Source of the DNA: Promethearchaeota archaeon
Lineage (GTDB): Archaea; Asgardarchaeota; Lokiarchaeia; Sigyniarchaeales; SOKP01
Direction: 5' to 3'
DNA: 64,000 bases
Assembly (NCBI GenBank): GCA_016930515.1
Contig: JAFGGO010000061.1
Coordinates: 1 to 64,000, forward strand
Each line of letters begins with the position of its first letter. The stretch's first letter is position 1. This document shows positions 1-16,879 of this stretch, piece after piece. The notes below the pieces were generated by a model, which saw nothing but the letters and a program-made list of their open reading frames with translations, made no database searches and was not told the DNA's origin. Made by a program: the position numbers and the translations under genes.

Positions 1-163
1 AAGACTTCCTTCGCTTTCATGAATAGTAATAAACATTTTTTATTATAAAAATCAAATGAGTCTAATGATTTTTAATAAAAAAATAGACCATATTTATTAT
101 TTATGGAGCACATGGACTGAAAATTTTTAAATGAAAAAATGGAAGGAATGAGGGCATGTATGA

Positions 164-1030
164 TTAGTACAAATACCACATCCATTCGATAGCTTCAAAA
201 AAGCTTATTTTATTGCATACATTAAATTGGAAGTAATTTTGGATTATTTTTACTAAGAATCGAAGGTATATTTCGCTAATTTTAATTTTATGTCGTTTTT
301 TAAGATAATCAATAATATAAGAAGGTAAAATTTTCTTGTTCTTCTCTTGATTCTCGATATATTCCATTATTTCACCTGACAACTTGAAAGCCTTGAAAAT
401 TTCGTTTTTTATCTTAATTAGAGCGGCTATGCGATCTTTTTCGGCGTTAAGAAACGAGTGAACGATCGCAGTTTCAACTTCAATGTTCTTAGGATTTAAA
501 AAGTTTGACTTGTCCCTGATGATGGTCTCGTTTTCCAGCACTATACAATCTTTCATTGATTTTTTCTCCTTTCCGTACTTCCACCTTTCAATTATTAATA
601 GCTCGGGTTTGAATGAATTTTTAAAAATGAATTGCACGAAATTATTCAAGTGCTTGGCAAGAATAGCATTATCGTTTAAAAAAACTACTTTTTTCTTATG
701 AAAGCAGCATTTTAAGAGGTAAGCAAGATTTATCGCAAGAAAATTGCTACTAATCAATAAAATATCCAGATCCTTTAATTCTGGCATGTCAATGTGAAGT
801 AATTCTTCGTAAGTTTTAATTTCAGGGAGTTTGAGCTTGAAATCAACTATAAAACAATCGCGAACCTCGTTATTACCGTCAATATAAGCAATAAAGGAAT
901 GATTGCAAATCACTTTTTCGTGGATATCAATTGAAGTCACTCCTTTTTCGTTTCTTGGAAGTTTATCAATTTCTAAATTAATATATCCAACTTGCTTACA
1001 AGAGGGACACCTTATTTGAATACTTGCCAC
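164..1030 (-). CDS. Lokiarchaeal-type hypothetical protein with N-terminal zinc ribbon
   Basis: 288-aa ORF; CPSC...CNHSFIAYID N-terminus; central LLKCCFHKKKVVFL segment weakly DENN-core-like. Confidence 0.6.
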   Translation of the reverse strand: MASIQIRCPSCKQVGYINLEIDKLPRNEKGVTSIDIHEKVICNHSFIAYIDGNNEVRDCFIVDFKLKLPEIKTYEELLHIDMPELKDLDILLISSNFLAINLAYLLKCCFHKKKVVFLNDNAILAKHLNNFVQFIFKNSFKPELLIIERWKYGKEKKSMKDCIVLENETIIRDKSNFLNPKNIEVETAIVHSFLNAEKDRIAALIKIKNEIFKAFKLSGEIMEYIENQEKNKKILPSYIIDYLKKRHKIKISEIYLRFLVKIIQNYFQFNVCNKISFFEAIEWMWYLY

Positions 1031-1233
1031 GAAGTGAACCTTACTATTTTTCTTTGAAGATCAAGGATTTTTCCATATTACAAGTAAATACATATCCTAA
1101 TAAATCTAGTGGATATTTAACATTTTTGTAAAAGGTGGAGCTTCTAGTAAAATTTAAAATTCAAACCTATTGTTATTATGATTTATCCATTAATGTTAAT
1201 GTTAATAGACTTAATGCTGTAAAAAATTTCTTG

Positions 1234-1632
1234 TTATTGAACTAACCATTCTTTTGCTTCTTCCATGGTGTCAAATGGCTTCGCTCCGACTTTTGAAAAC
1301 TTATTAACCACATTTAATAATATTTTTTTCACCCCTGTGATTCCCAATACGGCTGTTTTTCTAAGAATTTCTTTGGATGCTTTTCCAGCATTGTTAAACG
1401 CATTAACCGTTTCCTTGTTGGCAAAGCTATCCCTAACATCAACGATAACCAGCAAATCTTTCTTGCCTGTTTTTAAGGTCAAACTGACGATTGCATTAAT
1501 CATCGAGGGAAATACGTCTCCTTGAAGGTTCCTATAATCGTCGATGAGAATTTCTTTGCCTTTATGCGTTATCCATTTCATTCGCGACTTCGCTTCTTCT
1601 AAAATTTCGGGTACTATTTCTAAATCAGACAT
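1234..1632 (-). CDS. STAS/SpoIIAA-like (SEC14-like) domain protein
   Basis: ITHKGKEILIDDY...LVIVDV...KTAVLGITGVKKILL...FDTMEEAKEWL pattern. Confidence 0.7.
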   Translation of the reverse strand: MSDLEIVPEILEEAKSRMKWITHKGKEILIDDYRNLQGDVFPSMINAIVSLTLKTGKKDLLVIVDVRDSFANKETVNAFNNAGKASKEILRKTAVLGITGVKKILLNVVNKFSKVGAKPFDTMEEAKEWLVQ

Positions 1633-1876
1633 TCGATTATCATTGCACGCTCTTTAAATGAAAAAATAATATATTGCCCTAATTTAAATATGTGGCTTTA
1701 ATAATATAAAAACAATAGAAGCTTTCCTTCTTGCTTATATATTTACATTGAAGTGTCTGGATAAATTTTGTTCGTACTATTAGGATTACAGGTTATTTAA
1801 AAGCGAATTTTTAAAAATCCGTGTTGTGATTATTCATTTGATCCAATAAAGATTTTTTTTAATTCGAGGTGTATAA

Positions 1877-2098
1877 GAAACGACCGAGAACGAAATAATA
1901 GAGTACGCCCATTGTAAGGTTGAAAAAGAAAAGAAAGAGGACGCTAAAAAGCCTCACATTAAAATCACCTGGGACAATCAATCAAAATCTCCCCAAGTCC
2001 CTCACATTCGAGTCATGTGGGACAACGAAAATCCCGGCAAGGTAAAGATCGAAATCGATGGGGAAGAAAAGGACATAAGCGAAATTCGAAAAGCGTGA
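1877..2098 (+). pseudogene. Start-less 3' gene fragment with internal PHIxxxWDN repeat
   Basis: Frame open from TAA 1874-76 to TGA 2096-98: ETTENEIIEYAHCKVEKEKKEDAKKPHIKITWDNQSKSPQVPHIRVMWDNENPGKVKIEIDGEEKDISEIRKA*; decayed paralog at 4244-4352. Confidence 0.6.
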
Positions 2099-2326
2099 AT
2101 CTTTGCGTTCGTCTTGATTAACAAGGTTTTTTATTAGCTCGTTTCTTATTCGAATAATTAAGAATTGCACTAAAATATCAATATCCATTCTATATATTTG
2201 ATAATAAAGGTATTGCACAATTCACCCACATGCATTTATATACCTTAGTTGATAGGTTATCCTTAAACCTTTATATAAAATTCACGAAAGCAGAATCCAG
2301 AATTAATCTTACAAAAGGCGAAAAAC

Positions 2327-2833
2327 ATGATTAAAAGAAATAAAATTATTTTGGGTATTATACTCCTTTCTTCAATTCTCGTACCGAGCGTTTCATTTGG
2401 TATCTACGCATGTGGAAATACACCCGTTCATCGAATTAATAATAGAGGAATTGATCCCGTCGGAGATGTTTCAAATCCTGACATTGATATTGTAGAATAT
2501 CGTTCCCATGGATCTTCAGACGGATCAACAATGATTGTGGAAATTAATGTTCTTGGAAAAATCAATGAAAGTTATTCTTATAGGTTTACAGTAGTTGCCA
2601 AAACTCTTTCAGACACAACAGGCCACATATACAGTTTTTTATTCAATGATGGGGAATGCGATGAAGGTTTTATTACCGAAATAGAAAATTCGACCATTCG
2701 AATGATTTTTCCAATGTCTCGACTTTCCCCCACTGATTATGTGATTGGAATTGAAGTTCTTGCAACCGATATATTCGAACGAGATTTAACCCCCGAAGTG
2801 AGAAACGCTTCGATAGCCCACCTATATTGGTAA
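2327..2833 (+). CDS. Secreted/membrane-anchored hypothetical protein
   Basis: Basic N-terminus plus hydrophobic signal; DPVGDV..PDIDI beta-rich domain. Confidence 0.65.
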   Translation: MIKRNKIILGIILLSSILVPSVSFGIYACGNTPVHRINNRGIDPVGDVSNPDIDIVEYRSHGSSDGSTMIVEINVLGKINESYSYRFTVVAKTLSDTTGHIYSFLFNDGECDEGFITEIENSTIRMIFPMSRLSPTDYVIGIEVLATDIFERDLTPEVRNASIAHLYW

Positions 2834-2881
2834 GATATATTGAATGTAGGGTTCAGTATTTCTTCCGATTAATAAAAATCC

Positions 2882-4051
2882 CTATTTTTTTAACTCTAAT
2901 ATACAGTTAATTAAAAAGATTGCAATGCAGATCACGCCAAAAACGAAAAAGGGAAATACCAAAGATATTTCTGCAAATAATCCCGCTATTAGCGGAGACA
3001 ACGAGCTACCCAAACCTATGGCGCTTTCGAATAATCCTGCTTTTGCGCCTTTTGCTTCTTTTTCGCTGTGGAGGAGCAACTCTAATGCGGATTTATAAAT
3101 CAAACCAGAGAAAATCCCCAAGAAAAGAAGCATCACTAATAGGAGATAAATATTCGTAATAATAATTAAAGAGAATAAAGAGAACGCAATACCTAGATAA
3201 GATAAATTAATGCGATTGAATTTACTTTCAATAATCCTACTCGCTATGAAATATGCCGTCCTTCCAAAGCCGTAAGCAAAAAGTAAAAGACCAATAATGG
3301 GCCCAAATAGTCCTAACCCATCAGGTCTTTTTGCGTAATCTGCGTAATATATTAAAATGAGCCTACCTATCATCGCATATACGAACATTCCAAACAAAAT
3401 TCTTACTAGGAATGTATTATAATTCTTTTTTGAATCTGATTGCGGAGATAAACTCTCCTTAGACTCGAGAATGTGGTTTTCCTCGATTTTCGTGCGCTTT
3501 GAATTGATAAATAAAGCTACAAAACTAAAACCAACGATGAAAAAAAGGAATATGATAAAAAATGCTATTTTAACATCGAGTTCGGAAAATATCCCTGCTA
3601 AAAATGGACCTATCATGAACCCAATGCTCCAATATAGGCAAAAATTCGAGATTGCTTTCTGATGGTTCTTCTTTGTTGAACTCGTGTGTTCTGAAATGTG
3701 TGCTTCGATTGAAGGCCAGAAAAATCCGTTCGCACAACCCAATAAAATTTGACCGAAAATTAAATGAGCGATATTTGAGGCAATTACCAAGTAATACAGC
3801 GAAATTGCTACTTGGCACGATGTTGCAATCATTAGAGAATACTTTCGGGGTAATTTATCGCCTAACCTTCCAAATAAAGCAGCCGTGATGACATATGTAG
3901 AACCATATGCTGCCCCAATCAATCCAGTTTGCAACGGCGAGGCACCTAATATCACTCCGTATAGCACGCTTAATACTTGCAGCAAGGATAATCCGAGGTC
4001 CCCTATGAATGCAAGAGGAAATACGAATAATAACGAAGCTGATTTCTTCAT
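2882..4051 (-). CDS. MFS transporter
   Basis: About 12 hydrophobic segments; motif A GRLGDKLPRK. Confidence 0.9.
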   Translation of the reverse strand: MKKSASLLFVFPLAFIGDLGLSLLQVLSVLYGVILGASPLQTGLIGAAYGSTYVITAALFGRLGDKLPRKYSLMIATSCQVAISLYYLVIASNIAHLIFGQILLGCANGFFWPSIEAHISEHTSSTKKNHQKAISNFCLYWSIGFMIGPFLAGIFSELDVKIAFFIIFLFFIVGFSFVALFINSKRTKIEENHILESKESLSPQSDSKKNYNTFLVRILFGMFVYAMIGRLILIYYADYAKRPDGLGLFGPIIGLLLFAYGFGRTAYFIASRIIESKFNRINLSYLGIAFSLFSLIIITNIYLLLVMLLFLGIFSGLIYKSALELLLHSEKEAKGAKAGLFESAIGLGSSLSPLIAGLFAEISLVFPFFVFGVICIAIFLINCILELKK

Positions 4052-4183
4052 TTAATACCATCAAATCTCTGATAAATTGCTACGACAGAAATAAATGATA
4101 AAATCAAGCATTTGAATAATAGTTTATGACAATAAGATATTAAATAATAGACCTCCTAAAGTAATATATTTCTTTTTTAATGA

Positions 4184-4242
4184 CTATTTAGGAGGATCTC
4201 TATGTATTCGAGTTCAGACATCCACTTGATCGACGGATCGTA
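4184..4242 (-). pseudogene. Remnant 3' end of a paralog of the OB-fold gene at 5016
   Basis: Encodes YDPSIKWMSELEYI(+2 nt)DPPK* versus YDPSIKWVSEIEHIDPPKK*; many differences synonymous. Confidence 0.8.
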
Positions 4243-4243
4243 A

Positions 4244-4352
4244 TCCCCTCAAATCCCCCCATTAGAGTAGTTTGTCACAATGAGAATTCTTAAAGGGTAA
4301 AAATCGAAATCGACGAGCAAATAAAGATATCAGCGAAATTTGGAATAAATGA
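4244..4352 (+). pseudogene. Decayed paralog of 1988-2098
   Basis: SPQIP.IRVVCHNENS*RVKIEIDEQ.KDISEIWNK* aligns to SPQVPHIRVMWDNENPGKVKIEIDGEEKDISEIRKA* with two 1-nt deletions and a stop. Confidence 0.8.
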
Positions 4353-4415
4353 GTTAAAAGCCTCTCCCGGGGTTAGCTCAAGCAATTGTAATGTATAATT
4401 TTTGCCCGTACTCCT

Positions 4416-4850
4416 TTATTCTTTATTCAAAACAAAAAGACTGGTAGATCCTTTTGCAACAAGCTGTTTTTTTTCGTTTAATATTTTCCCGGACATGTAC
4501 ACTAAACTATTGCCTTTATTTACTATTTTGGCAATAAATCTTACCTTTTCACCAATAAGCGCTTTTCCAATAAAGTCAATATTCATGCTCGTTGTAATGG
4601 CTGAGACTTTATCTCCTGGATGGTTGGCTAATATACCAAGAACATCGCATAACATCGCAGCTCGAATACTACCGTGAAGAATTCCAAGTGGATCAGCCAT
4701 TTCCGGTCGGACCTCAAATTCGCATTCCATGATGTTATTATCTACGAAAATTAATTTCGGATTAAGCCATTGCGTTACTGAGTTCATGATATTGCTTTCC
4801 ACCGATGATAAATACTTGCCTTCAAGAGCTTTTAGTTCAATTATATCCAT
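4416..4850 (-). CDS. PaaI-family hotdog thioesterase
   Basis: MADPLGILHGS..AAMLCD and TTSMNIDFI motifs. Confidence 0.85.
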   Translation of the reverse strand: MDIIELKALEGKYLSSVESNIMNSVTQWLNPKLIFVDNNIMECEFEVRPEMADPLGILHGSIRAAMLCDVLGILANHPGDKVSAITTSMNIDFIGKALIGEKVRFIAKIVNKGNSLVYMSGKILNEKKQLVAKGSTSLFVLNKE

Positions 4851-5015
4851 ATTTCTCGTTATTTACATTATTTAATGCGGATGACCGCGTTTTGTGTGAT
4901 ATTTTTTTAGAGATAGTTGAGAAAATAATGTAAGTGAATAATATTTTACGACACACGGAAATAAAGACAATAGTGAATAGGCGTGTATTTATATCCTTGT
5001 ACGAAGCACTTTTAG

Positions 5016-5306
5016 TTATTTCTTAGGGGGATCTATGTGTTCGATTTCAGAGACCCACTTTATGGAGGGATCGTAAAGATCGTTTTCAGGAGGAATCAAG
5101 CGTCCTTTCACGCGAATCCATTGCCCAACTCTTGGAAGAAAGCCATACTGATTGATTTTTGAAGCATTCACTAGTACAGAATAATAATCGTTTCCAGAAA
5201 GCACGCGCAAGGATAAATAACCGTAGGTATAGCTTCGCGTCATCCTTTTTTCACCATGTCTCACTTCGACGATCTTACCTTTAATCGATATATCTCCTGG
5301 GTTTAT
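5016..5306 (-). pseudogene. OB-fold nucleic-acid-binding domain, apparently 5'-truncated
   Basis: Frame extends past the called GTG to *INPGDISIKGKIVEVR with no Met; GQWIRVKG OB-fold strand. Confidence 0.6.
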
Positions 5307-5328
5307 CTATATAGCATCTTCTTAGCAT

Positions 5329-6240
5329 TTATTGATAACTTTTTAAATCTAATAATTCTTGAAAATTAGAATAAGTCCATTTTATCTTAACTTCCTCAAA
5401 TTCACTTTCTAAAACATCGATAACACTAATATCGACCAAAAAAAGAATATTCTTTTTATTCACTATTCCAAGAATAGTAAGGATTTGTGTAAATATTTTT
5501 ATGATACCTTTTTTTCTTTGTTGACCAAAATACAATTTTATACAGGAATATGGTTTTAAATTTCCATCTTTATTGTCGTCTGAAAAGGTTAGGATCTTCA
5601 CATTATTTTTGGTTTTTATTAAATCATCATATTTTTTAAAAACAAGTCCATCTTTAGTGAGTAAACGAAAGTTAAAATATTTTTTAACAATATTTTTTAC
5701 CCGTGCATCGTCAAAGTTATTTATTCCTTTTAAAAAAGTCTCGCGAACATTTTTTACGATTTCGTTTGTTTTAACATTTTTCTCGTTTAAAAACTCAATA
5801 TAGGCATCCAAACAATTTGGTAAGTTCTGTGTAATATGTTGTCTTAAAATTTGAATTTGAGTTCTCCATTTCTCATTGAATTGAATATTGCTTCTTGAAA
5901 GATCTAAATCGATTGAATTTCTTAGAAAATTTAGGTCGTATTTTATCAAACGGTTAGAAAACTCTGAATTATCTTCCAAATAGTGTATTTGATCAGAAAC
6001 AAGTATTCCACCATAAGAGATTCTTTCACTAGGCCCTAAAGGAAATGATCTTCTTTCTCCGGGGACGATACTTACCACGCCTTCCATTCCAGCTTCCTTG
6101 ATCTCAAAGTTAGAGTAAAATTCTTCAAAAGATTCGGGAAGAACGAAAAATTTTTCCCCATTGACTTTTGAAGATCCCTTATTAGAAATAAAGGTTACAG
6201 GTATTTCAATGTGAGCGAGATATTTTCTCAGTAAATTTCC
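5329..6240 (-). pseudogene. 5'-truncated C-terminal fragment of a larger unknown protein
   Basis: Called N-terminus (6240-6450) is the antisense of the LRR ORF; junction about 6235-6250. Confidence 0.55.
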
Positions 6241-8262
6241 AAGTATAATCCATACATCAAGGACGCTGCCGTATTCGATTACTTGCGTTCGAATGATTTC
6301 TTTGGAGGATATCGCCCAATTATAAAAAATTGCCACATTTACAAAGTTAAGTTTAAACAAGCACCGAAATTGAAAGACCTGTTCTGGACCTTGGAACACC
6401 TCGAAACCCTGGATCTCGAGAACAACTCGATCGAATTCAAGGAAAACCACACTATCAAGGAATTAAACATAACTTGTACCATAACATCCAAGGATCGAGT
6501 GCGGTTAAATCTTCACGAATCCGTACACTTGCTTAAAAACTTAAAAAATCTTAGTATAAACGGTTTCCACGAAATTAACTTTCCCGAATCGCTTATAGAC
6601 CTAAAAAACCTGAAAAAGATCGTCATTTATTCGAAAGACTTGATGAACTTGCCTGAAGTCTTGTTTAAATTGACTCAATTTCATAACATAATCATTGACA
6701 GCAGAATGAGCGATGCTGAAAAAAATAAAATCGAAGAAAATTACGATTACAATAATCCACACATTATCGTAAAGTGTTCTGCTAACACGATATTAGAAGG
6801 ACTCGAACTTCCCTCGCACATCTCAAATTTCACGTTCGTTGCGAAAAACCTCCCTCAAGAAATGATCTTTCGATCTAAAGTGAAAAAATTAGTAATCATC
6901 GAAGTTAATAATGCTAGCTATTCGTTCCTAAACGGAGATCTATACACGGAAGAATTAGGTGCTGGAAACTACTTTCTAAAAAGCAACGACATGACATTTT
7001 TTCCAACCTTTACAGTCGATCCTCAAGAAATCGAGAATTTAATCATTCAAAACAGGAGGATAAATCAAATTCCAGAGTGGATATTTCAATCTCCTCACAT
7101 AAAACAATTATTAATATCCCAATACCAATTAAATTTTAATCGAGATTTCCAATCAATCGAAAAAGGCAGGTTCGAGATTTCAATCAACGATGGTTCCCGC
7201 TTGAACGCTAAAAATATTACGGCTCAAGTCGTTCAAGCAAGATTAGAATTACCTTCCATAAGAAATGTTCCCGAATTTGTGTGTCAAATCAAGAATATCC
7301 AGCATCTTATAATAACTTCAAGAAATCTCGACGATTTTGTAGGGTCATTCGGGAAAAACCACGCGAACCGCATTGAAATAAAATCCTATCACCAATTTGC
7401 ACTTACCAATGCTCTCAATTCCTATACTGAACTAACGCACTTGCAGCTTGACGGTTTAAATTTTGGATCTTTTCCTGCTGATCTCAAATTTCCAAGACTC
7501 AAGTTAGCTAGGCTCACGGAGAATTCTAATTTAAACCGACTTCCCCATTTTATCGCTCACACATCTCTAAAGATCGTTCACATCTATAAAAACATCGACC
7601 AATCTTATATTACCGACTTCTGGAACAACAATGATGATAATCGACTTGAAGTATTACCCTCTGTTCCAAGATTTTTTTTCGTTAACAACAACAATTTTAC
7701 CCACTTGATCGTATCCGGCTATAGAATGGAAATAGACACGACTGATTTCGACTTAAAATCCATAAAACACATGAGATTTGAAGATTTACCCGAATTGAAC
7801 AAGTACTTCCAATATTTCTCCAACGCAGATCTCATCGAAATTAACATCGCAAATGTAAGAAGCGTGCCCGACTGGATATTAAATTTTATAAACATTAAAA
7901 AAATCTTGTTAACCACTGAAGAAGTGCCATTTCAAGAAGAATTTTTCAACTCTGATGTAAAAAACACGCTCAAGCTTAAAATCCACAACGAATTTGATTT
8001 TGAATCCCTATCGAACTTGTCCGCTTATTCACACGCTTGTTTCGTCATTCACGACATTAATTTCTTGTCCAATAACCACATAATCTTGATAAACAATTCG
8101 AAACCAGTTCGAATTTTAAAAACGACCGATCCCGAGCGTTTCTGTAATAAATATCTTGGAATGCCCGATCCAGGCTACAGGTTGATTGTTTTCAACACTG
8201 AATGCGTATTACCTGGCGATTTTAATTCCTTTGTACGCTCAGAATCCGACACTTTCTCTTGA
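6235..8262 (+). pseudogene. Leucine-rich-repeat protein, probably 5'-truncated
   Basis: LEHLETLDLENNSI, LKNLKNLSI, IPEWIF, VPEFV, VPDWIL repeats; frame open without Met from TAA 6232-34 (ISKYNPYIKDAAVFDYLRSN...). Confidence 0.7.
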
Positions 8263-8306
8263 GCGTTTATTCCCTGACACCTGACCTCGATCCGACCTTG
8301 GTGCGC

Positions 8307-8325
8307 TTCATATCCACGACTTCGA
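8307..8325 (+). repeat. 19-bp direct repeat, copy 1 (isolated ibrB 3' end)
   Basis: ttcatatccacgacttcga identical to 9451-9469; 25/28 over 8303-8330; minus strand encodes FSKSWI*. Confidence 0.9.
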
Positions 8326-8421
8326 GAATTTTGGATTAGAAAGGATTTAACATCGAAATAATTAGGGAAATAGCGAGTTTAATGAACAAAAAAAAAGAAA
8401 TTAAGTATATTTTAAAATCCT

Positions 8422-9312
8422 TTAAACGGAACCCGCAGCAAGGGGTAAATTTGTTAAATCCACATCATTTCCATCTGGATTTATACCATCTGCTAAGATA
8501 TGAGTTTGGGTTGCTATTGGAGGTGACCAAAAAAGTACAGGACCCCATTGGCTCAACGCATATCCATGGTAATATTCAAATTTTACTTTTACATCTAAGT
8601 CCACAATGCGCTCATGGTGTACAAGAATATGACCAAATGATGGCTCTTCCCACACAATTCCATCGTTCCATTGTTTTGCAACATCGTTATGCACTTGAAA
8701 TTTTACGCAAGCCTGGAAATCATGTCCCCGGTAATGAGTGCTTTCGTAATACCCCAAATACCGATAACTATCTTGTATGGGGGGATTCACTTGAGGATGA
8801 GCACTATGCGAACATCCTTGGGTTGTAGATTGTGTACTAAAACTTAAGCCATAAAGCTGAAGCCCCACTGAATACTGCCACTCATCAGGTGTTGCTGAAC
8901 CATAATCCATGTCTCCGTTCCACGTTATCAAATCGCTTGGTGGGGCAGCCCAACGAGTTACAGTGAAGTGGTTATACGATCCCTTGATCGTTACATAATC
9001 GTAATATCTAGCAAATAGGTAGAAATATACTCTTACACCAGTAAACCAGCCATAATCCGAGAATGCTTGTTTTCCATATGTATAGACAGCATATTCTGTA
9101 AACCCTCCTTGCCCAGAATCGTCATATACCACATGTCCTGGTATTTGTACTTTAGATTTTAATTCATTTCCACCAACAACCCAGGTTCTATCTTCAACCC
9201 CACCACAAGTTATATAATCAGACGCATGGGCGTTTACAACCAAGGTAAGCAGGATAAAAACGGATGCGATGCTCCCTATAAGTAATACTTTCTTTTGAGT
9301 TTTAGATTTCAT
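8422..9312 (-). CDS. Secreted beta-rich, Tyr/Trp-rich hypothetical protein
   Basis: MKSKTQKK + hydrophobic core + AHA cleavage site; intact 296-aa ORF. Confidence 0.75.
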   Translation of the reverse strand: MKSKTQKKVLLIGSIASVFILLTLVVNAHASDYITCGGVEDRTWVVGGNELKSKVQIPGHVVYDDSGQGGFTEYAVYTYGKQAFSDYGWFTGVRVYFYLFARYYDYVTIKGSYNHFTVTRWAAPPSDLITWNGDMDYGSATPDEWQYSVGLQLYGLSFSTQSTTQGCSHSAHPQVNPPIQDSYRYLGYYESTHYRGHDFQACVKFQVHNDVAKQWNDGIVWEEPSFGHILVHHERIVDLDVKVKFEYYHGYALSQWGPVLFWSPPIATQTHILADGINPDGNDVDLTNLPLAAGSV

Positions 9313-9340
9313 AATTTATGTTCCTATTTTTATTTTTTGA

Positions 9341-9378
9341 TACCAGATAACCTGGTAAAGTCCTCAATTAACTATTGA
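9341..9378. promoter_or_regulatory. Two palindromic operator-like sites upstream of the secreted-protein gene
   Basis: TACCAG-N5-CTGGTA (9341-9357) and TCAAT-N5-ATTGA (9364-9378), next to a TTTAAA box at about 9380. Confidence 0.4.
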
Positions 9379-9450
9379 ATTTAAATATTATGAAACGATC
9401 AATCGAGGTTTGATCCAATCAATTGATTTAATCATTGATATTAAAAGCGA

Positions 9451-9469
9451 TTCATATCCACGACTTCGA
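9451..9469 (+). repeat. 19-bp direct repeat, copy 2 (stop region of intact ibrB)
   Basis: Identical to 8307-8325. Confidence 0.9.
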
Positions 9470-10087
9470 AAAGTCCCTGTTCTTGAACAGGTCTCCCAGC
9501 CCGACGAACTGCTTGAGCTTGAGCACCTCGTCCTTTTCCATGCCCAACTGCTCGGCAATCTTCTTATCGCTCACGCCCTTCAAGTATAGCTCGGCCACGA
9601 TGTCTGCCATGCCCCGAACCTCGTGCGTTCCTCGGGCGCGATTGTGCCTGATTGTCGACGCCATGCGCTCCACGATGGGCTTGTCGATGGTCACGACGGG
9701 AAGATATCCCCGAATCCGTCCCGCAACGTCCTCGTATTCCTTTCCGACCCTATTCCTGTGAAACCCGTCCACGACGACATACTTGTCGAGCTCCTTGTCG
9801 TGATAGGCCACGATGGGCTGCGTGTACCCGTCTTCCTTGATCGACAAGTGGAGCAGTCTCATTTCGGGCGGCGCCACCTTGTTAGGGTTGTAGTCGTTTC
9901 CCTCCACTTTATCGGCCGGTACCCACTGGATGAGGTCCACGGGCTCGGCGTTCAGGGGGCTCATCTCGAACAAGAGTCGCTTCATCTCGTTTGCAAGTAA
10001 GACTTTTTCAGCAAGCGGGAAATTGTTCACGTCCCGCAACAGTTTCTTAAATTCGCTCAATACCTCGTTTTTATCTCGTGCGCTCAT
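9452..10087 (-). CDS. ibrB: IbrB/YbdM-like ParB-N-domain protein
   Basis: NDYNPNKVAPPEMRLLHLSIKEDGYTQPIV, VVDGFHR, MASTIRHNRARGTH motifs. Confidence 0.9.
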   Translation of the reverse strand: MSARDKNEVLSEFKKLLRDVNNFPLAEKVLLANEMKRLLFEMSPLNAEPVDLIQWVPADKVEGNDYNPNKVAPPEMRLLHLSIKEDGYTQPIVAYHDKELDKYVVVDGFHRNRVGKEYEDVAGRIRGYLPVVTIDKPIVERMASTIRHNRARGTHEVRGMADIVAELYLKGVSDKKIAEQLGMEKDEVLKLKQFVGLGDLFKNRDFSKSWI

Positions 10088-10094
10088 CTTGCGA

Positions 10095-10860
10095 TTACTC
10101 GCCGTATTGTTCTTTTAATCTTAATAATCGAGGGTATCCCCCCACCACGCTCCCGAACGAGAGCGTCTTGCAATTGAGGTCGTTCTTGAGAACGCACTTG
10201 GCGATCCGTTCCCAGCTCGGGAGCTTCCTGCGCTTCGAGCCGTCCGGGGCGTTCCAGCGCGGGTCAGACTTATCGGGCGTGGCATCGGGCACGTCCTCCC
10301 TGCTCCACTTTTCTTCGACCTCCCACCACATCAAGAACTGTTCGATGCGTTCCTGATACACGTGTGCTTGGTATTTCGGAATCGTGTTCAGCAGGAAATT
10401 TGCGTACTCCTTCCAAGTGTATTGGTCGGGCTTTACGACCTTGCCGTTGCCAAGGATCTTGAGACCCCGATAGATGTTCCCAAAATTTGCGCCCGCAACG
10501 CGCTCGACGACCTTAAACCACGTGTCGGGCTCGATCTTCCGAAACAAGTCCAGGCCCTTGCGCTGGTCGTCGCCGTAGGGCTGGCAAATCCTCGCCTCGT
10601 GAATGGACCGTCCGGTTATGTAGATGAGGTCGTAAATCTTGTTGTACTTGAGGCCAAACTTGCCCACGGCCGTCCATATATCCTCGGTCTTCCAGTCGTA
10701 AATGGGATAGGCGTTGTACAGGTCTTTTCTCACCCGCGTGGTCCAGTTGTGCCCCTTGTAGGTGGACTCGTCGGTCTCTTTCTTAACCGCGAGGAACCGA
10801 TGCAACGACTCGTCCGAGCGAATGGCGATCAAGGCCGCCGTTTTTTCGCCCGAGAATTGG
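10095..10860 (-). pseudogene. ibrA: IbrA/YbdN-like PAPS-reductase/DUF3440 protein, N-terminal PP-loop half deleted
   Basis: AIRSDESLHR, YPIYDWKTEDIW, RICQPYGDDQRKGL, RVAGANFG, PSWERIAKCVLKND present; SGGKDS absent. Confidence 0.85.
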
Positions 10861-13284
10861 TACGAGACCTTCGTGGATGGTAGAATAGAAAGCAAGGTCG
10901 TACCACTTGATAACGAGCTGAGGCAGGTACAAGGGTGGGAAAGCGACCAGAAGGACGTGTTCTCGTTGCGATATTACACCGCCATCAGCCAGACGGTTGG
11001 ACGCCGTTACACGCTTTCGGTTCAGGATACCACGACCAACATCGTGCCGACCAAGCCATACAACCAGTACTTGCCGTGGCTCGGAGGTTTAAGAGAAGGA
11101 AAAATGACTAGACTCGAATATAGGATGCCATCTCCTCAAGAGATAATAGAGAACTATGGAGAAGAGTTTACAATTGAAAAATGTTATGAAATATTTTCAG
11201 ACATTATGCTTCCTTTTAATGAAGTTCCTTTCACAAGGAAAGTTATTCCATATATCGACCAATATTTAGACATTCTAAATGGCTTTTTTATTAGTCCAGA
11301 TTTTAATAATTTTATTTTAGGTCCAAGCCATAGCGAAATTAACAATCGAATTAGTGAATTATTTCTATCTAATGGCCTATTAGACGAAGATTCTCTTTTA
11401 AAGTTCCTTTGGATGGATTCTAATGGAGCATTCAGGAGGACTCAAATAATGGAAGGAGGAGGAGAGGAGATCTTTACCACTAAAGCCTGGTTAGAAAATA
11501 TTCGCCAAAAAATTATCGAATATCAAGGAACAGATAGATCTTTATTAAAAGCTCAGACTATAATCGAAGATAGGGCATCAAGACAAGATCACGCAGAGAG
11601 CTTAAATCTCTTAGAACGAGAAAAATTCACAGAAGAAGAAGCGAATTTAGGTGAAGCGATTCTTGAAGCCATTATGGAGGCATTCGGTCATTTTACAGTC
11701 CGTTTGACCTTCGGAAACATGCTTGATTACTACTATACTATCAATGGAATTGGAATTAAAGTAATGCAACGTCCTGCCCTCAATACTCGCGAATATGATA
11801 GGGGATCCCAAGCAGATGTTTTACCATCAATGTTAAATCATATAGGATTAATTCTTTCAACATCTAGATATGATAGTAATATTATTCGTATTAGAGACGA
11901 TCTAAAAGTGAATCATCTTTTTTCGTTCTTGTTTTTGGACAACAAAATAAATTTACCATTGATAGATTCAAGCGATATTTCAAAAGAAATATATCTAAAA
12001 ATTGGACCATTAATAGGAGTGCAATCTCAAAAATCATTAGTTAGATATATTCCTAAACGCTTATCACAAGATTTTGCCAAGAATTTTGTATATAATTTTT
12101 ACAAATTTAGTGAAAATGTTTATTCTATTGATGATAATTTCATAGAAAAAAGTTACATACAATCTCAAGATAATTTATACGATTTCTTAAAAGCTGAATT
12201 CCATAAAAAGATAATTTTGGGAAATTACTTGGGAGATATGAGGCTCGATAGAGATTTACTTGACAAGATATTAAGTAACGTGAGGATTAAATTATATAAT
12301 ACCAAATACCACACTTCATTTAAGAGTATAAGTAGGATAATCGAAGCTTCTCTATATTACGATAAAAATATTCCCTTAAATGTTCGTGCAAATACGATAG
12401 ATCTTGAAATTGACCAGGTTATCGATCCCAAGACTAATAGACCTTTCAAGTTAACTATTCAAAAGGAAGAATTACTCCAAGTCGATTTTAAATTATGGGG
12501 TAGAGGCGATATACTTAGTTCCATTAGTAAGGAGACCACCAAATCAGCATTAACGAGTACTGTTTCCAATTTAATGGATCATTTAAAAGAATTAATTATG
12601 GATGAAACCGTAGGAAATAAGAAAGTAAGAATATTCCCTCTCGTAAGGATTGTATCTGGAGGAAAAGATTATGGATATCAATATTTAGTACCCGATAGAA
12701 AAGCAGATGGAAGCATAAAGGCAAAGGCTTTAAAATATTTAACCTATTTACCAAAATCCAAACCTTATTTTGATATTGATTTGTCCAATCCTGGATCAAA
12801 ACAATTCAAGCAAAGTCTTTACCAATTAGAACACATTATATTTTCTTTACTTCCTGACATGCAAGGAGATTTAGCATTTATTGTAAAAGAACAAGATGCA
12901 ACTTATAATGATGGAAAAATGTTATTTGGTTTCAATCGAGAAGGATATTTTGATAAAGACGAGTTATTTTCTGATGGATCAGGAGGAAACGATCTCAGGA
13001 GCGCAAATAATTATATTAATTATCCCATGATAATTCAGACTGCTTTGTATAAATTCAAACAAGCAGATTGGGATAAATTCATTGGTACTAATTTTCCACT
13101 TCGAGGTGATGCAATAGGTAGTTTCTTTACAGATTATATGATATACTTGAAAACCAGTCAAGACGAAAGAGCAATTTATTTAAGAGAATCTATTTTGACT
13201 CCGTATTTGTATAGTCTCCCGAGTAATTTAAATAAGCAAAGATTTATCACGGAAGATGATTTTCCTTTTTATATTTTAACTTAA
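10860..13284 (+). CDS. C-terminal part of a large unknown protein (5'-truncated, or alternative start at ATG 11104)
   Basis: About 800 open codons; called start lies antisense inside ibrA; GC-rich to about 11095 then AT-rich. Confidence 0.6.
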
Positions 13285-14366
13285 TATCCGATCCAAGCAC
13301 ACATTCCCTTTTTTTTAAATTCTTCTTCTTTTTTTTTAATGGCGTTAAATCCAATCGAATAGTACAGGACGCCATCGCTAATTTCTACGATTTCAAGCGA
13401 ATCCATCGAAAGGAGAAAATCGGGAAACTCGCTCAATCTTATATTTTCCATGTATATCTCTTCGAGGTGAGTCAGTTCAGAGATAAATTCGGGCAATTCC
13501 CATCCAAATCGCTCTAATTCGTGATAATGATCTTGGGGATCGAATCCGTAGCCTTCTGGAAAGTAGGATAACTGTAATTTGACCACGTGCTTGTCTCTTA
13601 CCGCGTACGCGTTGTTAGCGCCGTTAATGGGGCGGTTATAGGCTCTAAACGGGTTTTGTCTCGCCTCTTCTCCGAGCTCCTCGATATTTATCGCTTGGAT
13701 GTTGGCGAGGGAAGTTAAAGGTCGTTCGGCCGATAGAAAGAGTTTGACTTTCTTTTTTGCACTTTCCAGAGATATGCCTTTTGCTTCGGCGTATTTAGGC
13801 GCGATGGTATCGTTCAAGTAATCCTGGAGCCTTCTCATAGTATCAGCATCCTCTGGCGACAGCAGAACGGACAGTAATTCGTCTTGCGATAAGTAATTAA
13901 CATATTGCTCTTCGATGAGAAAATCCACGACGGGCTGATATCCGCCGTCGATTCGTTTCGCAATTTCCTCCTTGAAGACTTTTCTGGCCAGGGGATCGCC
14001 TGCCTCGGTAAGCTCCTTGAGAAGTGGGAACGCAAGATTATTTCGTAGCAAGCGAGTATCGTAATCGTGCTCGGTCCAGGCTTGTAGGTTGCTGCAATGA
14101 CCCCAGAACTCGATTTCTGCTGGAATGACGCCCTGCTTCCTTTCTTCGGAAACGAATTCTAACGAATCGTCGAGTCGCTCTGAAGCTTGATCTATCGATT
14201 CCATCTCCTCGAATTCCTGGTCGTCGTCAGCACGAGCGCTCAATAAGAGAAAAGCGCATGTTCGAAAATACTTTCCCGATATGTATATCCTTGTTTCGCC
14301 AGATTCTAACTTTAACGATAAAAATTTGCTGACGACGAATTCGGTGGGAACGCTCATCAAGATCAT
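13281..14366 (-). CDS. Lokiarchaeal expanded-family protein (EFWGHCSNLQAW domain) with short C-terminal LRR
   Basis: EFWGHCSNLQAW.EHDYDTRLL..NLAFPLLK.L..AGD..A..VFKEEIAKR; LPEFISELTHLEEI, FPDFLLSMDSLE. Confidence 0.8.
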   Translation of the reverse strand: MILMSVPTEFVVSKFLSLKLESGETRIYISGKYFRTCAFLLLSARADDDQEFEEMESIDQASERLDDSLEFVSEERKQGVIPAEIEFWGHCSNLQAWTEHDYDTRLLRNNLAFPLLKELTEAGDPLARKVFKEEIAKRIDGGYQPVVDFLIEEQYVNYLSQDELLSVLLSPEDADTMRRLQDYLNDTIAPKYAEAKGISLESAKKKVKLFLSAERPLTSLANIQAINIEELGEEARQNPFRAYNRPINGANNAYAVRDKHVVKLQLSYFPEGYGFDPQDHYHELERFGWELPEFISELTHLEEIYMENIRLSEFPDFLLSMDSLEIVEISDGVLYYSIGFNAIKKKEEEFKKKGMCAWIGY

Positions 14367-14650
14367 AGAAGATTAGCTTTCTTTTAAATCTTGAGGGTAA
14401 GGTGGTTTCAATGTGGCCTTGATACACAATTTTCTATCAGGTTTACCCTTCAAAATAGAAATACTGCTCGTTACACCTGTTTAATCGGCGTTAAGTCACA
14501 AATTAAGGAAAACGCTTTTAAGCAAACTCATTATATGAATGGGACACCTGTTAAAAACGATTTGATAGAATATAAGAATGAAAGGTTTGAATTCCCTTTT
14601 GCTTTTACATTTATTTACTCGTTCTTCTGGTCGTTCCGAGCGAAATGGTG

Positions 14651-15127
14651 CTATAGATATCCATTATCAAGTCTTGGACTCTTGATAGGTTTCAATACGA
14701 CGCACACCCTTTCAACGCTCCTCACGTCGCTTCGGCCTCGGAATACTTCGAGTAATGCGTCAAGCTCCGTGATTTCGGGCACTTTTACCTTGATAAGGAC
14801 GCCGCATTGCCCGGCGAGAAAGTAGACTTCTTCGCATTGAGGTAGGACTTGTGCTTCACGGAGCAAGTCTTTTATTTGCGTTTCCTCGGAAGGCATGATG
14901 GTTATGAAAGCCATGATGCCCGAATCCTCTTCTCGGCAGACTTTTATCGTGAAACGCTCGATAACTTGGTCTTCTTGGAGTTTTACCACCCGTTTCCGGA
15001 CCGTGCTCTCGCTCAGCCCTATCTCGTCAGCGATCTCGCGATACGGGCGACGCGAGTCTTCGATGAGCATTTCTAATATTCGCTTGTCTTTCTCGTCCAG
15101 ATTTTTCACTGATTGCACCTTCAACAT
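14651..15127 (-). CDS. Lrp/AsnC transcriptional regulator
   Basis: LDEKDKRILEML.EDSRRPYREIA..IGLSESTVRKRV HTH. Confidence 0.92.
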   Translation of the reverse strand: MLKVQSVKNLDEKDKRILEMLIEDSRRPYREIADEIGLSESTVRKRVVKLQEDQVIERFTIKVCREEDSGIMAFITIMPSEETQIKDLLREAQVLPQCEEVYFLAGQCGVLIKVKVPEITELDALLEVFRGRSDVRSVERVCVVLKPIKSPRLDNGYL

Positions 15128-15213
15128 TATTTTTTTTGGTTGGTTTTTTTGGAAAACGGTTCTATTTGAATAATATATATAAAAAAATTACTATTTAAAG
15201 ATTTTGGTCGATT

Positions 15214-16182
15214 TTAGTAGTATTTCTTGGCGTAATCGGGATATTTGTTAAGGAGCGGGGCAAAAAGTCTTTCGTATTCGACTGCCATGCAATGGATGCC
15301 GCTTGCCTTCGAGTTTTTCTTGATCTCTTCTATGAAAGGTACGAAGAATTCCACATTTACCTTGTCGAGAGCGGCATACTTAGCCTTCTTATCCCCCTTG
15401 TTTTCCTTCTCTGCAGTCTTCAGCGCCTTGAGCAGGTCTTTTGGAACACTTACTCCAGGGATATATTGATCAAAGTACCACGCAATTCCGTAGCTTTTCA
15501 TGGGGAAAACACCCAAAAGAATTGGTACATTAAAACGCGCCAGTTCGTTGATGAATTCTTTCGCAACCTCCACATCGAAAGCCGTTTGTGTCTGTATGAA
15601 ATCTATACCTTGTTCGACTTTTCTTCCTACTTTAAGAATTTCTGGTTCCATGTACTCTCCAACGGCGTTTGGATTTGCCACGCATCCATAGTTCATTTCC
15701 ACTTTTCCCCCCGAGATTTGGTTACCCTCATAATCAGTGCCCTTATCAATGATCTTGCTTAAGAGCTCGCAGAATTGCGTGCTGTCGATGTCGTAGACGG
15801 GTCTTGCTTTTTTGTTATCACCAAGTGCTGTATGATCTCCCGTAAGCACGAGAATGTTCTTGAGTCCCATATAAGCGCCCGCAATCACGTCTCCGAATAG
15901 AGCAACGCGGTTTCGGTCCCTAACAGCTACCTGCCATACGGCCTCTATCCCGGCGTCTCGTTGTACCACGTGACTTGGTACCAACGACGACATGTAAGCG
16001 TCCCCTTGAGGACCATCAGTAACATTGGCCGCAATGATCCTTTCAGTTTTTTTCATTTCTTTTGCAGAGTGAACGATCTCGCTCATGTCCATGATCTTCT
16101 TTGGTTCCAATTCTCCCGTGAAGACGAAATGACCGTCTGCGATTGCTTTACATAGTTTACTATACGCTGGTCTCTTGGCCAT
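15214..16182 (-). CDS. metF: Methylenetetrahydrofolate reductase catalytic subunit
   Basis: ANVTD, RDRNRVAL, NILVLTGDH, FIQTQ, GIHCM; start moved to ATG 16182 (MAKRP) behind GGAGG. Confidence 0.9.
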   Translation of the reverse strand: MAKRPAYSKLCKAIADGHFVFTGELEPKKIMDMSEIVHSAKEMKKTERIIAANVTDGPQGDAYMSSLVPSHVVQRDAGIEAVWQVAVRDRNRVALFGDVIAGAYMGLKNILVLTGDHTALGDNKKARPVYDIDSTQFCELLSKIIDKGTDYEGNQISGGKVEMNYGCVANPNAVGEYMEPEILKVGRKVEQGIDFIQTQTAFDVEVAKEFINELARFNVPILLGVFPMKSYGIAWYFDQYIPGVSVPKDLLKALKTAEKENKGDKKAKYAALDKVNVEFFVPFIEEIKKNSKASGIHCMAVEYERLFAPLLNKYPDYAKKYY

Positions 16183-16183
16183 T

Positions 16184-16879
16184 CTATTTCGCCTCCTCCT
16201 TTGTCTCCTCTTCGTTAGTGTATTCCTTGAAAATTTTAATGTAACCCGGACTGGTCGACGTGCGGTAATCACGTGCGGGACGATATACATTGAATAAGTC
16301 AAGCCTTCCGACCGCTTTTAATCGCTTGTAGATTTCGATCCAAGCACAGGGAATTGTATATCCTCCCACTTCACATTTACCATCAACGGTTCCACCACAA
16401 GGACCGTTCATTAAATGCTTGGCGCAACTCGCCCGTGGACATATTCCCCCCGTTTCTCCAATTATGCAATCACCACATTCTTCGCAATATTCGATAAAGT
16501 TATTCTCACCGTTATTTTGAACCCCACCAAACATGCTGTTTTGAGCGGGAAAGGTAAGAATTTCGCTTGCAACCTTGTTCATCATGACAACGCCAAGACC
16601 GCACGCAAGCGACACGATCGCCTCATATTCTCCGATGAAAGGTCTGATAGTCGTGGCCGCAATCCTGTCGTCGCATTGACGCAACACTGTCGTTGCTTTC
16701 CATATCAGCTTTTTTCCTTCCGTTTTAGCCTTCAATTCAAGGAGTTGTCCCAAAACTTTAGCTTCGTTTATAGAACGAGGAGGTTGACAACACCCGTCGC
16801 ACCCCGCAATTAAAATCTTGGAATATTGCTTTATCATGTCGTAAATTTCGTTTATATCTTTTTGTTGTGTAATTATCAT
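16184..16879 (-). CDS. metV: MTHFR Fe-S/Zn subunit MetV
   Basis: MIITQQK, GCDGC, RQCD, LACGLGV, CEECGDC..GETGGICP...CAKHLMNGPCGG. Confidence 0.9.
   Translation of the reverse strand: MIITQQKDINEIYDMIKQYSKILIAGCDGCCQPPRSINEAKVLGQLLELKAKTEGKKLIWKATTVLRQCDDRIAATTIRPFIGEYEAIVSLACGLGVVMMNKVASEILTFPAQNSMFGGVQNNGENNFIEYCEECGDCIIGETGGICPRASCAKHLMNGPCGGTVDGKCEVGGYTIPCAWIEIYKRLKAVGRLDLFNVYRPARDYRTSTSPGYIKIFKEYTNEEETKEEAK

Follow-up and report, generated by a model that had tools for sequence, protein, structure and literature searches.

The window analysed here is a 64,000-nt stretch of contig JAFGGO010000061.1 from a Promethearchaeota archaeon (positions 1 to 64,000). Between a STAS/SpoIIAA-like gene and an Lrp/AsnC regulator gene it carries a region of approximately 13 kb (~1633-14650) that is probably a strain-specific island, made up as a patchwork of unrelated DNA pieces, some of whose joints cut through genes. 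At least five unrelated segments appear to lie end to end, with approximate limits up to 4243 (S1), 4242-6276 (S2), 6283-8328 (S3), 8329-10852 (S4) and 10852-14650 (S5). Three joints are of particular interest, J1 at 4242/4243, J2 at approximately 6270-6283 and J3 at 10850-10853. The joints and the truncations that they cause, the absence of the island from three congeners, a GC-rich block and duplicated gene ends around cargo genes are all evident from the comparisons below. On balance, the arrangement is attributed to serial integration and illegitimate joining of foreign or allelic DNA, with silent, promoterless gene stumps surviving. The segments would have entered via recombination at short or diverged homologies combined with illegitimate end-joining, so that joints landed inside genes. 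Stumps that lie head to head without their 5'-ends would be tolerated, having no promoter and no product, while expressed truncations or fusions would be purged, and the stumps themselves would be functionless.

The source genome (G000) is a metagenome-assembled genome (MAG) of 4.0 Mb in 190 contigs, 94% complete with 5.3% estimated contamination and 35% GC. It was compared with five genomes of the same genus (G001-G005), 134 other genomes of the family and 265 from elsewhere in the phylum sample. In three of the five same-genus genomes (G001, G004 and G005) the locus is empty, with a gap of only ~170 bp between the STAS and Lrp/AsnC genes compared with 13 kb here. In G003, the nearest relative, the contig stops 51 nt past Lrp/AsnC. 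The composition of the island is also atypical, with GC content at third codon positions (GC3) of 0.70-0.77 in one part, whereas long open reading frames (ORFs) in the genome have a median of 0.34 and a 99th percentile of 0.57. In the other genera of the family, no STAS gene was found within 10 kb of Lrp/AsnC; synteny thus breaks at the island position across the family, and the locus can be called a hotspot only within the genus. In a more distant organism the gene order is the same, with a relative of the large gene at the right of the island (44% aa identity) followed by a 331-aa gene and then by Lrp/AsnC-MTHFR-DUF5981, indicating that the right-hand module, composed of the large gene and a leucine-rich repeat (LRR) gene, recurs at the Lrp/AsnC position.

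J1 is formed by the remnants of two small genes, an OB-like gene (O) and a 'WDN' gene (W), which are both present a second time in the island. On the left of the joint, 4175-4243 shares 78-84% nucleotide identity with 5010-5076, the last 14 codons and stop of the OB-like gene, and the homology ends at 4243. The region downstream of the OB-like gene is duplicated as well, with 4087-4131 matching 4909-4953. On the right, homology begins at 4242, and 4242-4340 shares 72% identity with the final ~37 codons of W at 1986-2086. A left-pointing and a right-pointing remnant are therefore placed head to head with zero intergenic DNA. Both have decayed, W2' containing an in-frame stop and O1' a 2-nt indel that shifts the frame before its stop. 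The gene order is W1 - (secreted protein, MFS transporter) - O1'/W2' - (thioesterase) - O2. As the duplicated copies are 16-28% diverged and each is accompanied by different cargo, at least one of the two derives from a different lineage, and they are allelic or foreign versions rather than copies made in place. Interleaved diverged duplicates are the signature of a tandem join, and J1 would be the novel joint created when two diverged versions were joined in tandem (W -> cargo <- O'/W' -> cargo <- O). This order could result from a crossover, unequal or illegitimate, or from a circularised piece of a relative's DNA integrating in the Campbell manner.

The W1 gene has the same extent in G002 (contig C49; 5595-5822 of locus L016) and is a stand-alone gene with an ATG start in G003 (contig C384; 1414-1632 of locus L128). 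The WDN ORF, which includes two PH[IV]+[IV].WDN repeats, was found in three genomes of the genus, G000 included. It lacks an ATG, GTG or TTG start in the window, G002 offers just an internal GTG and G003 has an ATG; GAGGTG is located just upstream of the ORF in both the window and G002. In O2, a stop codon lies directly upstream of the homologous N-terminus. The nearest relatives of the OB-like protein (71-73% aa identity) are in another genus, where the gene is found beside acyl-CoA metabolism genes.

J3 joins a truncated ibrA gene (ibrA') to the large gene, and both sides of the joint are GC-rich. The ibrB-like gene, ibrA' and 10852-11088 have GC3 values of 0.76, 0.77 and 0.70, respectively, compared with 0.24-0.26 in the rest of the large gene. 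The predicted IbrA' protein matches only positions 102-164 of the 175-position PAPS_reduct profile, together with DUF3440 (E = 6.8e-32). From residue 16 onward it aligns with residues 211-461 of a 462-aa IbrA at 78% identity. This reference, the nearest IbrA, is encoded on a metagenome contig of 58% GC, and nucleotide homology with that contig ends at 10852. DUF3440 and an adjacent ParB-N gene, as in an IbrA/IbrB pair, are present, and ~200 N-terminal residues of IbrA are missing, including the PP-loop, so that there is no complete PAPS-reductase domain. The ParB_N score of the ibrB product is under the Pfam cut-off, yet IbrB partners encoded adjacent to ibrA have 61-69% identity to the protein, and IbrB from GC-rich metagenome contigs 64-69%. 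On the other side of J3, homology in the large frame begins at 10852, which corresponds to residue 210 of a 999-aa relative (P0003), and the two homologies meet without spare bases. The large gene is short of at least 200 aa at this joint.

ibrAB-like DNA was detected in none of the 134 other genomes of the family. It is present in three other Asgard families at 65-73% nucleotide identity, and the best matches to the block are at 78% aa identity in metagenomes and 61-66% in GTDB genomes. Judged by its composition and distribution, the GC-rich block is foreign. J3 lies within GC-rich DNA and would thus have arisen before or during the arrival of the block. The block is now in two pieces, 8263-8328 and 9447-11088, separated by a 1.1-kb AT-rich stretch with a single gene that predicts a secreted protein. 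At the end of the left piece, 8303-8328 (B1') is a copy of the stop region of ibrB that matches 9447-9472 in 24 of 26 positions and includes a perfect core of 19 nt, and this 19-mer occurs at just these two sites in the whole genome. The inserted stretch is therefore flanked by direct repeats that rebuild the end of ibrB. A small circle that integrated at a short, attachment site (att)-like homology in the 3'-end of ibrB would leave this layout, and the stretch may have entered through this 19-26-bp homology. The secreted-protein gene is its sole ORF, with no integrase, and no circular back-joint was seen among the contigs of the sequencing runs, which may miss rare forms.

The right edge of the GC-rich block is at 11088, at codon 110 of the large gene, where GC-rich DNA switches to AT-rich DNA in frame, and relatives are colinear on both sides. 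All relatives of the large gene that were found are AT-rich, and none is GC-rich. An internal ATG at 11104 is preceded by GGAGG. Under serial integration, this edge would be a crossover at a homologous position in the large gene, and the chimera is the feature with the poorest explanation.

It was considered whether this switch, or even all of the joints, could be an assembly chimera between organisms, as the genome is a MAG with the contamination stated above, a graph chimera arising at a shared word would take the form of an in-frame colinear switch, and support for the joints is from contigs rather than reads. This is improbable. A second assembler, applied to the probable source run, yielded a 30.5-kb contig that agrees with 58-16500 at every position, although it derives from the same run. 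DNAs with GC3 of 0.70 and 0.25 are unlikely to have a 21-31-mer in common, and an assembler is unlikely to invent the nested history of a GC-rich block split by an insert with an imperfect 26-nt repeat. Identical short contigs are also present in a run from another study, though none bridges a joint. That run is from a hot-spring metagenome, unlike the sediment from which G000 came, and its contigs correspond to 2896-3087, 5397-5669 and 6300-6716; the same strain or island seems to be present there at low depth.

The large gene family appears to be confined to this family of archaea, as relatives were found in 11 of its 134 other genomes and in none of the 265 sampled elsewhere in the phylum (loci L012 and L021-L034), with open frames of 647-2283 aa. 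No relative was found in viral contigs. The protein has no Pfam domain and no usable match in a protein atlas. An AlphaFold model is confident from approximately residue 90 of the 810-aa query (pTM, the predicted template modelling score, 0.75), and Foldseek retrieved no PDB structure for it at E <= 0.001. The gene is paired with a convergent LRR gene in three contexts. The N-terminal ~160 residues of this 361-aa LRR protein define a family of many copies at 40-54% identity; G000 has at least 17 paralogs, on about 17 other contigs, and relatives have many. Four relatives of the large gene (loci L022, L023 and L032, and the P0002 contig) start at contig edges, at query residues ~126-205, and these cuts near the GC-to-AT switch hint at repeated or strain-variable DNA close to the N-terminus.

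These observations bring up an alternative in which the large gene and its LRR partner swap their body near codon ~110-200 as a polymorphic module, the large gene being an orphan and the other stumps debris. The in-frame switch at codon 110, the four relatives cut at contig starts and the conserved convergent pairing would fit such a module. However, the genome holds no second full-length copy of the large gene, the partner is convergent and not downstream in the same orientation as in toxin-immunity orphans, the protein shows neither a recognised domain, toxin or otherwise, nor a fold match, and only J3 and 11088 would be covered. The module is thus an unlikely account of the island.

At J2, a fragment comprising the C-terminal ~300 aa of a protein related to HD-CE/HATPase proteins faces an orphan LRR frame, LRR'. 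In an exhaustive HMMER search, 5332-6282 matched only the C-terminal ~280 residues of proteins of 675-811 aa (for example, residues 389-667 of 675 and 487-775 of 787). The HD-CE and HATPase_c_3 domains of these relatives lie upstream of the matched part, and the fragment itself has no Pfam match, so that both the HD-CE and the GHKL ATPase domains are missing. It is short by roughly 390-480 residues, and its frame has no start codon in 6336-6087. Comparison with these proteins proves that the left side of J2 is 5'-truncated. For LRR', truncation is suggested by repeats that begin within ~30 codons and by the first in-frame ATG, in a frame open from 6235, being at codon 121. No relative of LRR' was found in the genome by tblastn or in a large protein database, and word-based homolog searches with the HATPase fragment and LRR' returned only the proteins of the window itself. 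GC3 changes from 0.29 to 0.47 across J2.

A simpler history would be that the island was once an intact set of divergent gene pairs, and that three small deletions each removed the promoter and both 5'-ends. The precise abutments, with overlaps of 0-2 nt, are consistent with this, as is the equal GC-rich composition on the two sides of J3, which would be expected of one deletion in one DNA. Plain deletion therefore explains J3 well, and J1 and J2 are not accounted for. The interleaved diverged duplicates around J1 are not made by deletion, and the GC3 shift at J2 is not expected in a once continuous pair. Intact pairs of the required type are also not seen, as the nearest ibrAB loci have no relative of the large gene upstream of ibrA, and relatives of the HD-CE/HATPase protein lie in contexts without an LRR gene as neighbour. 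Deletion is the most serious of the alternatives but, for the island as a whole, remains a doubtful one.

The preliminary description of the region, made from the sequence alone, had listed head-to-head fusions of start-less gene ends near 4243, 6240 and 10860, and possible ones near 5301 and 8330. The first is borne out by the homologies of O and W that meet at 4242/4243, and the ibrA'/large-protein joint near 10860 by those that abut at 10852 with both 5'-ends missing. Near 6240, truncation is clear for the HATPase-protein fragment from its longer relatives in HMMER and is only suggested on the LRR side. At 5301 the arrangement is head-to-tail instead, since the 5'-end of O2, with its start codon lost, adjoins the 3'-end of the HATPase fragment. 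Position 8330 marks where the 26-nt duplicate of the ibrB stop region finishes on the right, and no gene end pointing rightward adjoins it; the supposed 'WDN end' at 1877 is a stand-alone gene of ~72 aa at its full extent, as in two congeners.

Truncated head-to-head pairs are found in this genome only in the island. Among 490 divergent adjacent pairs of ORFs of 150 aa or longer, 7 overlap by >=60 nt at their 5'-ends, and two of these are J2 and J3. The remaining five are ordinary genes, as in each case the ORF is over-extended and a complete Pfam domain starts slightly inside it. All six ends of the three joints face inward, for which the chance under random orientation is ~1/64, before allowing for selection by the reader who picked them out.

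The recurrence of one joint orientation, three times in 7 kb and at no other place in the genome, and the placement of cargo genes between duplicated gene ends, would be in keeping with a dedicated recombination system, acting in trans, that captures, stores or shuffles promoterless gene 3'-ends at this locus. Storage or shuffling of cassettes was indeed part of the preliminary description, and is not upheld. The stumps belong to unrelated families with no expressed or full-length partner, the remnants are decaying, and J1-J3 have no motif in common beyond chance 7-9-mers. The earlier observation that the window lacks a recombinase extends to the whole contig, on which no tyrosine, serine, DDE or TnpB-type enzyme was found, and PF00589 occurs at one site in the genome, a single Xer-like tyrosine recombinase on contig C90. 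Inverted or circular variants, which had been proposed as a check, were not seen among the contigs of the sequencing runs. The search for full-length parents gave a divided result; tblastn of all island proteins against the 4.0-Mb genome returned self-matches only for the HATPase fragment, LRR', ibrA' and the large gene, and longer relatives of the HATPase fragment, ibrA' and the large gene exist elsewhere. A dedicated system is accordingly very improbable. Also improbable, if slightly less so, is a looser form of the idea, a capture site at which a process acting in trans (host end-joining or replication restart, or an unrecognised recombinase) would repeatedly ligate foreign DNA, circularised or broken, and keep the inward 3'-ends for mechanistic reasons, or, more narrowly, the large gene and LRR gene would constitute an Asgard polymorphic module that swaps its body near the N-terminus. 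The other half of the early proposal, a hotspot of tandem integration with partial loss, agrees with the absence from three congeners, the duplicates that flank cargo and the mosaic composition, with the restriction of the hotspot to the genus.

Several points weigh against serial integration and illegitimate joining. Support for the joints comes from assembled contigs of one sample. The W -> ... <- O slot was sought in the relatives and no such parental arrangement was found; W is known outside the window from two congeners only, and the 93-aa OB-like family, present in 38 of the 134 family genomes, is missing from all five same-genus genomes. No duplicates flank J2 or J3, and their origin is therefore deduced from composition and truncation alone. 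No donor of the GC-rich block was found, and an in-frame homologous crossover between alleles with GC3 of 0.70 and 0.25 would be hard to achieve by ordinary homologous recombination. The argument from survivorship, by which only inward-facing silent stumps persist, depends on just three joints.

Table 1. Features of the island and its flanks, with positions in the window. A prime marks a remnant or truncated form.
Feature	Position	Strand	Basis or remarks
STAS/SpoIIAA-like gene	1234-1632	-	Left flank; Pfam SpoIIAA-like
W1, small 'WDN' gene, ~72 codons, full extent, no canonical start	1880-2098	+	Congener comparison
Secreted 168-aa protein (cargo a)	2327-2833	+	
MFS (major facilitator superfamily) transporter, intact (cargo a)	2882-4051	-	MFS_1 profile positions 2-312 of 347 matched
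O1', remnant: last 14 codons and downstream region of OB-like gene	4087-4243	-	Direct repeats D1 and D3, local alignment
W2', decayed copy of last ~37 codons of W, in-frame stop	4242-4340	+	72% identity over 101 nt to 1986-2086
4HBT/PaaI-type thioesterase, intact (cargo b)	4416-4850	-	Pfam 4HBT
O2, OB-like small gene, nearly full length, native ATG lost	5016-5297	-	72% aa identity to 93-aa gene of G010
5'-truncated HD-CE + HATPase_c_3 protein fragment	5329-6282 (373-codon frame 5329-6450)	-	HMMER
LRR', orphan leucine-rich-repeat frame, probably 5'-truncated	6283-8262	+	LRR matches from residue 29
Left GC-rich piece, including B1'	8263-8328	-	Repeat D5; GC 0.53
AT-rich insert, secreted 296-aa protein (ORF 8422-9312)	8329-9446	-	Bounded by B repeat
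ibrB-like ParB-N gene, intact	9447-10087 (ORF 9452-10087)	-	Pfam ParB_N; GC3 0.76
ibrA', tail of PAPS_reduct and DUF3440	10095-10853 (frame 10095-10895)	-	Pfam; 78% identity to IbrA
Large frame, 840 codons	10762-13284	+	ORF list
GC-rich 5' remainder of large gene	10852-11088	+	GC3 0.70; E = 3e-12 to P0003 residues 210-290
AT-rich body of large gene	11089-13284	+	GC3 0.25; in frame and colinear with GC-rich part
LRR protein, 361 aa, convergent partner of large gene	13281-14366	-	Pairing also on P0002 and P0003 contigs
Lrp/AsnC regulator	14651-15127	-	Right flank; Pfam; synteny in relatives
MetF	15214 onward	-	Beyond right flank

Among the cargo genes, the thioesterase gene (4399-4854) has a paralog at 904-1355 of contig C115 (83% nucleotide and 81% aa identity); homology is restricted to the ORF and 17 nt on either side, and the neighbours on C115 are unrelated. 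The one variant junction among the contigs, 9832 to 10692, was dismissed; a single short contig carries it, with 27 nt to one side, and this is probably the ibrAB of another organism. Scans of the island proteins with PADLOC and NCBIfam gave only weak LRR, DndC and ParB hints, and an Rfam scan of the whole window at gathering thresholds gave no match. Two RNA runs of the source study cover next to none of the stretch, too little to read expression. Contig C110 starts with a sequence (1-101) that shares 96% identity with the first 100 nt of the present contig (1-102), probably a repeat that interrupted the assembly. Elsewhere in G000, 14 of the 25 windows of 500 bp with GC >52% are located at 21-45.5 kb of contig C58, which could be a second foreign island, rRNA or contamination.

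Variable islands and recombination hotspots that carry gene remnants are known from prokaryotic genomes. The region resembles these in its absence from close relatives at a fixed position, its mosaic composition and its mixture of intact accessory genes and pseudogene fragments. It differs in that no tRNA, island-wide flanking repeat, integrase or transposase is present, and in the unusual run of three head-to-head 5'-truncated joints.

Tandem merodiploid joints that arise from recombination with incoming DNA have been documented in bacteria (Johnston et al. 2013, PMC3784515), and the W...O'/W'...O order, with a novel joint between the ends of duplicated units, is of the same form. Here, however, divergence between the units is 16-28% and their cargo differs. 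Asgard genomes have been shown to hold small integrated elements that can circularise (PMC11529989). The 1.1-kb insert is like att-flanked elements in that its direct repeat (19 bp perfect, 26 bp imperfect) rebuilds the ibrB stop region and a displaced copy of the repeat remains by the original GC-rich flank, but it consists of a single secreted-protein gene without an integrase and no circular form was seen. Integrated elements flanked by att duplications of the 3'-end of a gene, and 'gene capture' in archaeal chromosomes, were reportedly described by She et al. in 2001.

Silent cassettes such as pilS and vls, and the orphans of contact-dependent inhibition (CDI) and Rhs systems, are paralogs of one expressed gene that have the same orientation and a common recombination homology. 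Clusters of promoterless gene 3'-fragments are a point of likeness, whereas the island has five unrelated families in opposed orientations, with no expressed full-length paralog and no conserved border. CDI systems are reviewed in PMC9086364. Integron cassette arrays have been reported in Archaea, and single-gene units between short repeats are reminiscent of them, though the genes of the island are on both strands and repeat and motif comparison revealed no attC-like common element. An integron was rejected, as there is no IntI on the contig or by the array (PF00589 being found only on C90) and the cassettes are not co-oriented.

The region is thus an unusually clear yet ordinary object, a mosaic variable island with recombination scars, and gives no evidence of a new molecular system. 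It provides a base-pair-resolved case of the accretion and erosion of foreign DNA at one site in an Asgard archaeal chromosome, a site that combines an insertion absent from congeners, a GC-rich ibrAB fragment of bacterial or archaeal type, an att-like insertion of one gene and a tandem join of diverged alleles. As such it may be of use in studies of gene flow and in quality control of MAGs. By-products of interest are the large gene that is an in-frame GC/AT chimera and its confidently modelled product, which is found in a single family and has no fold match in the PDB.

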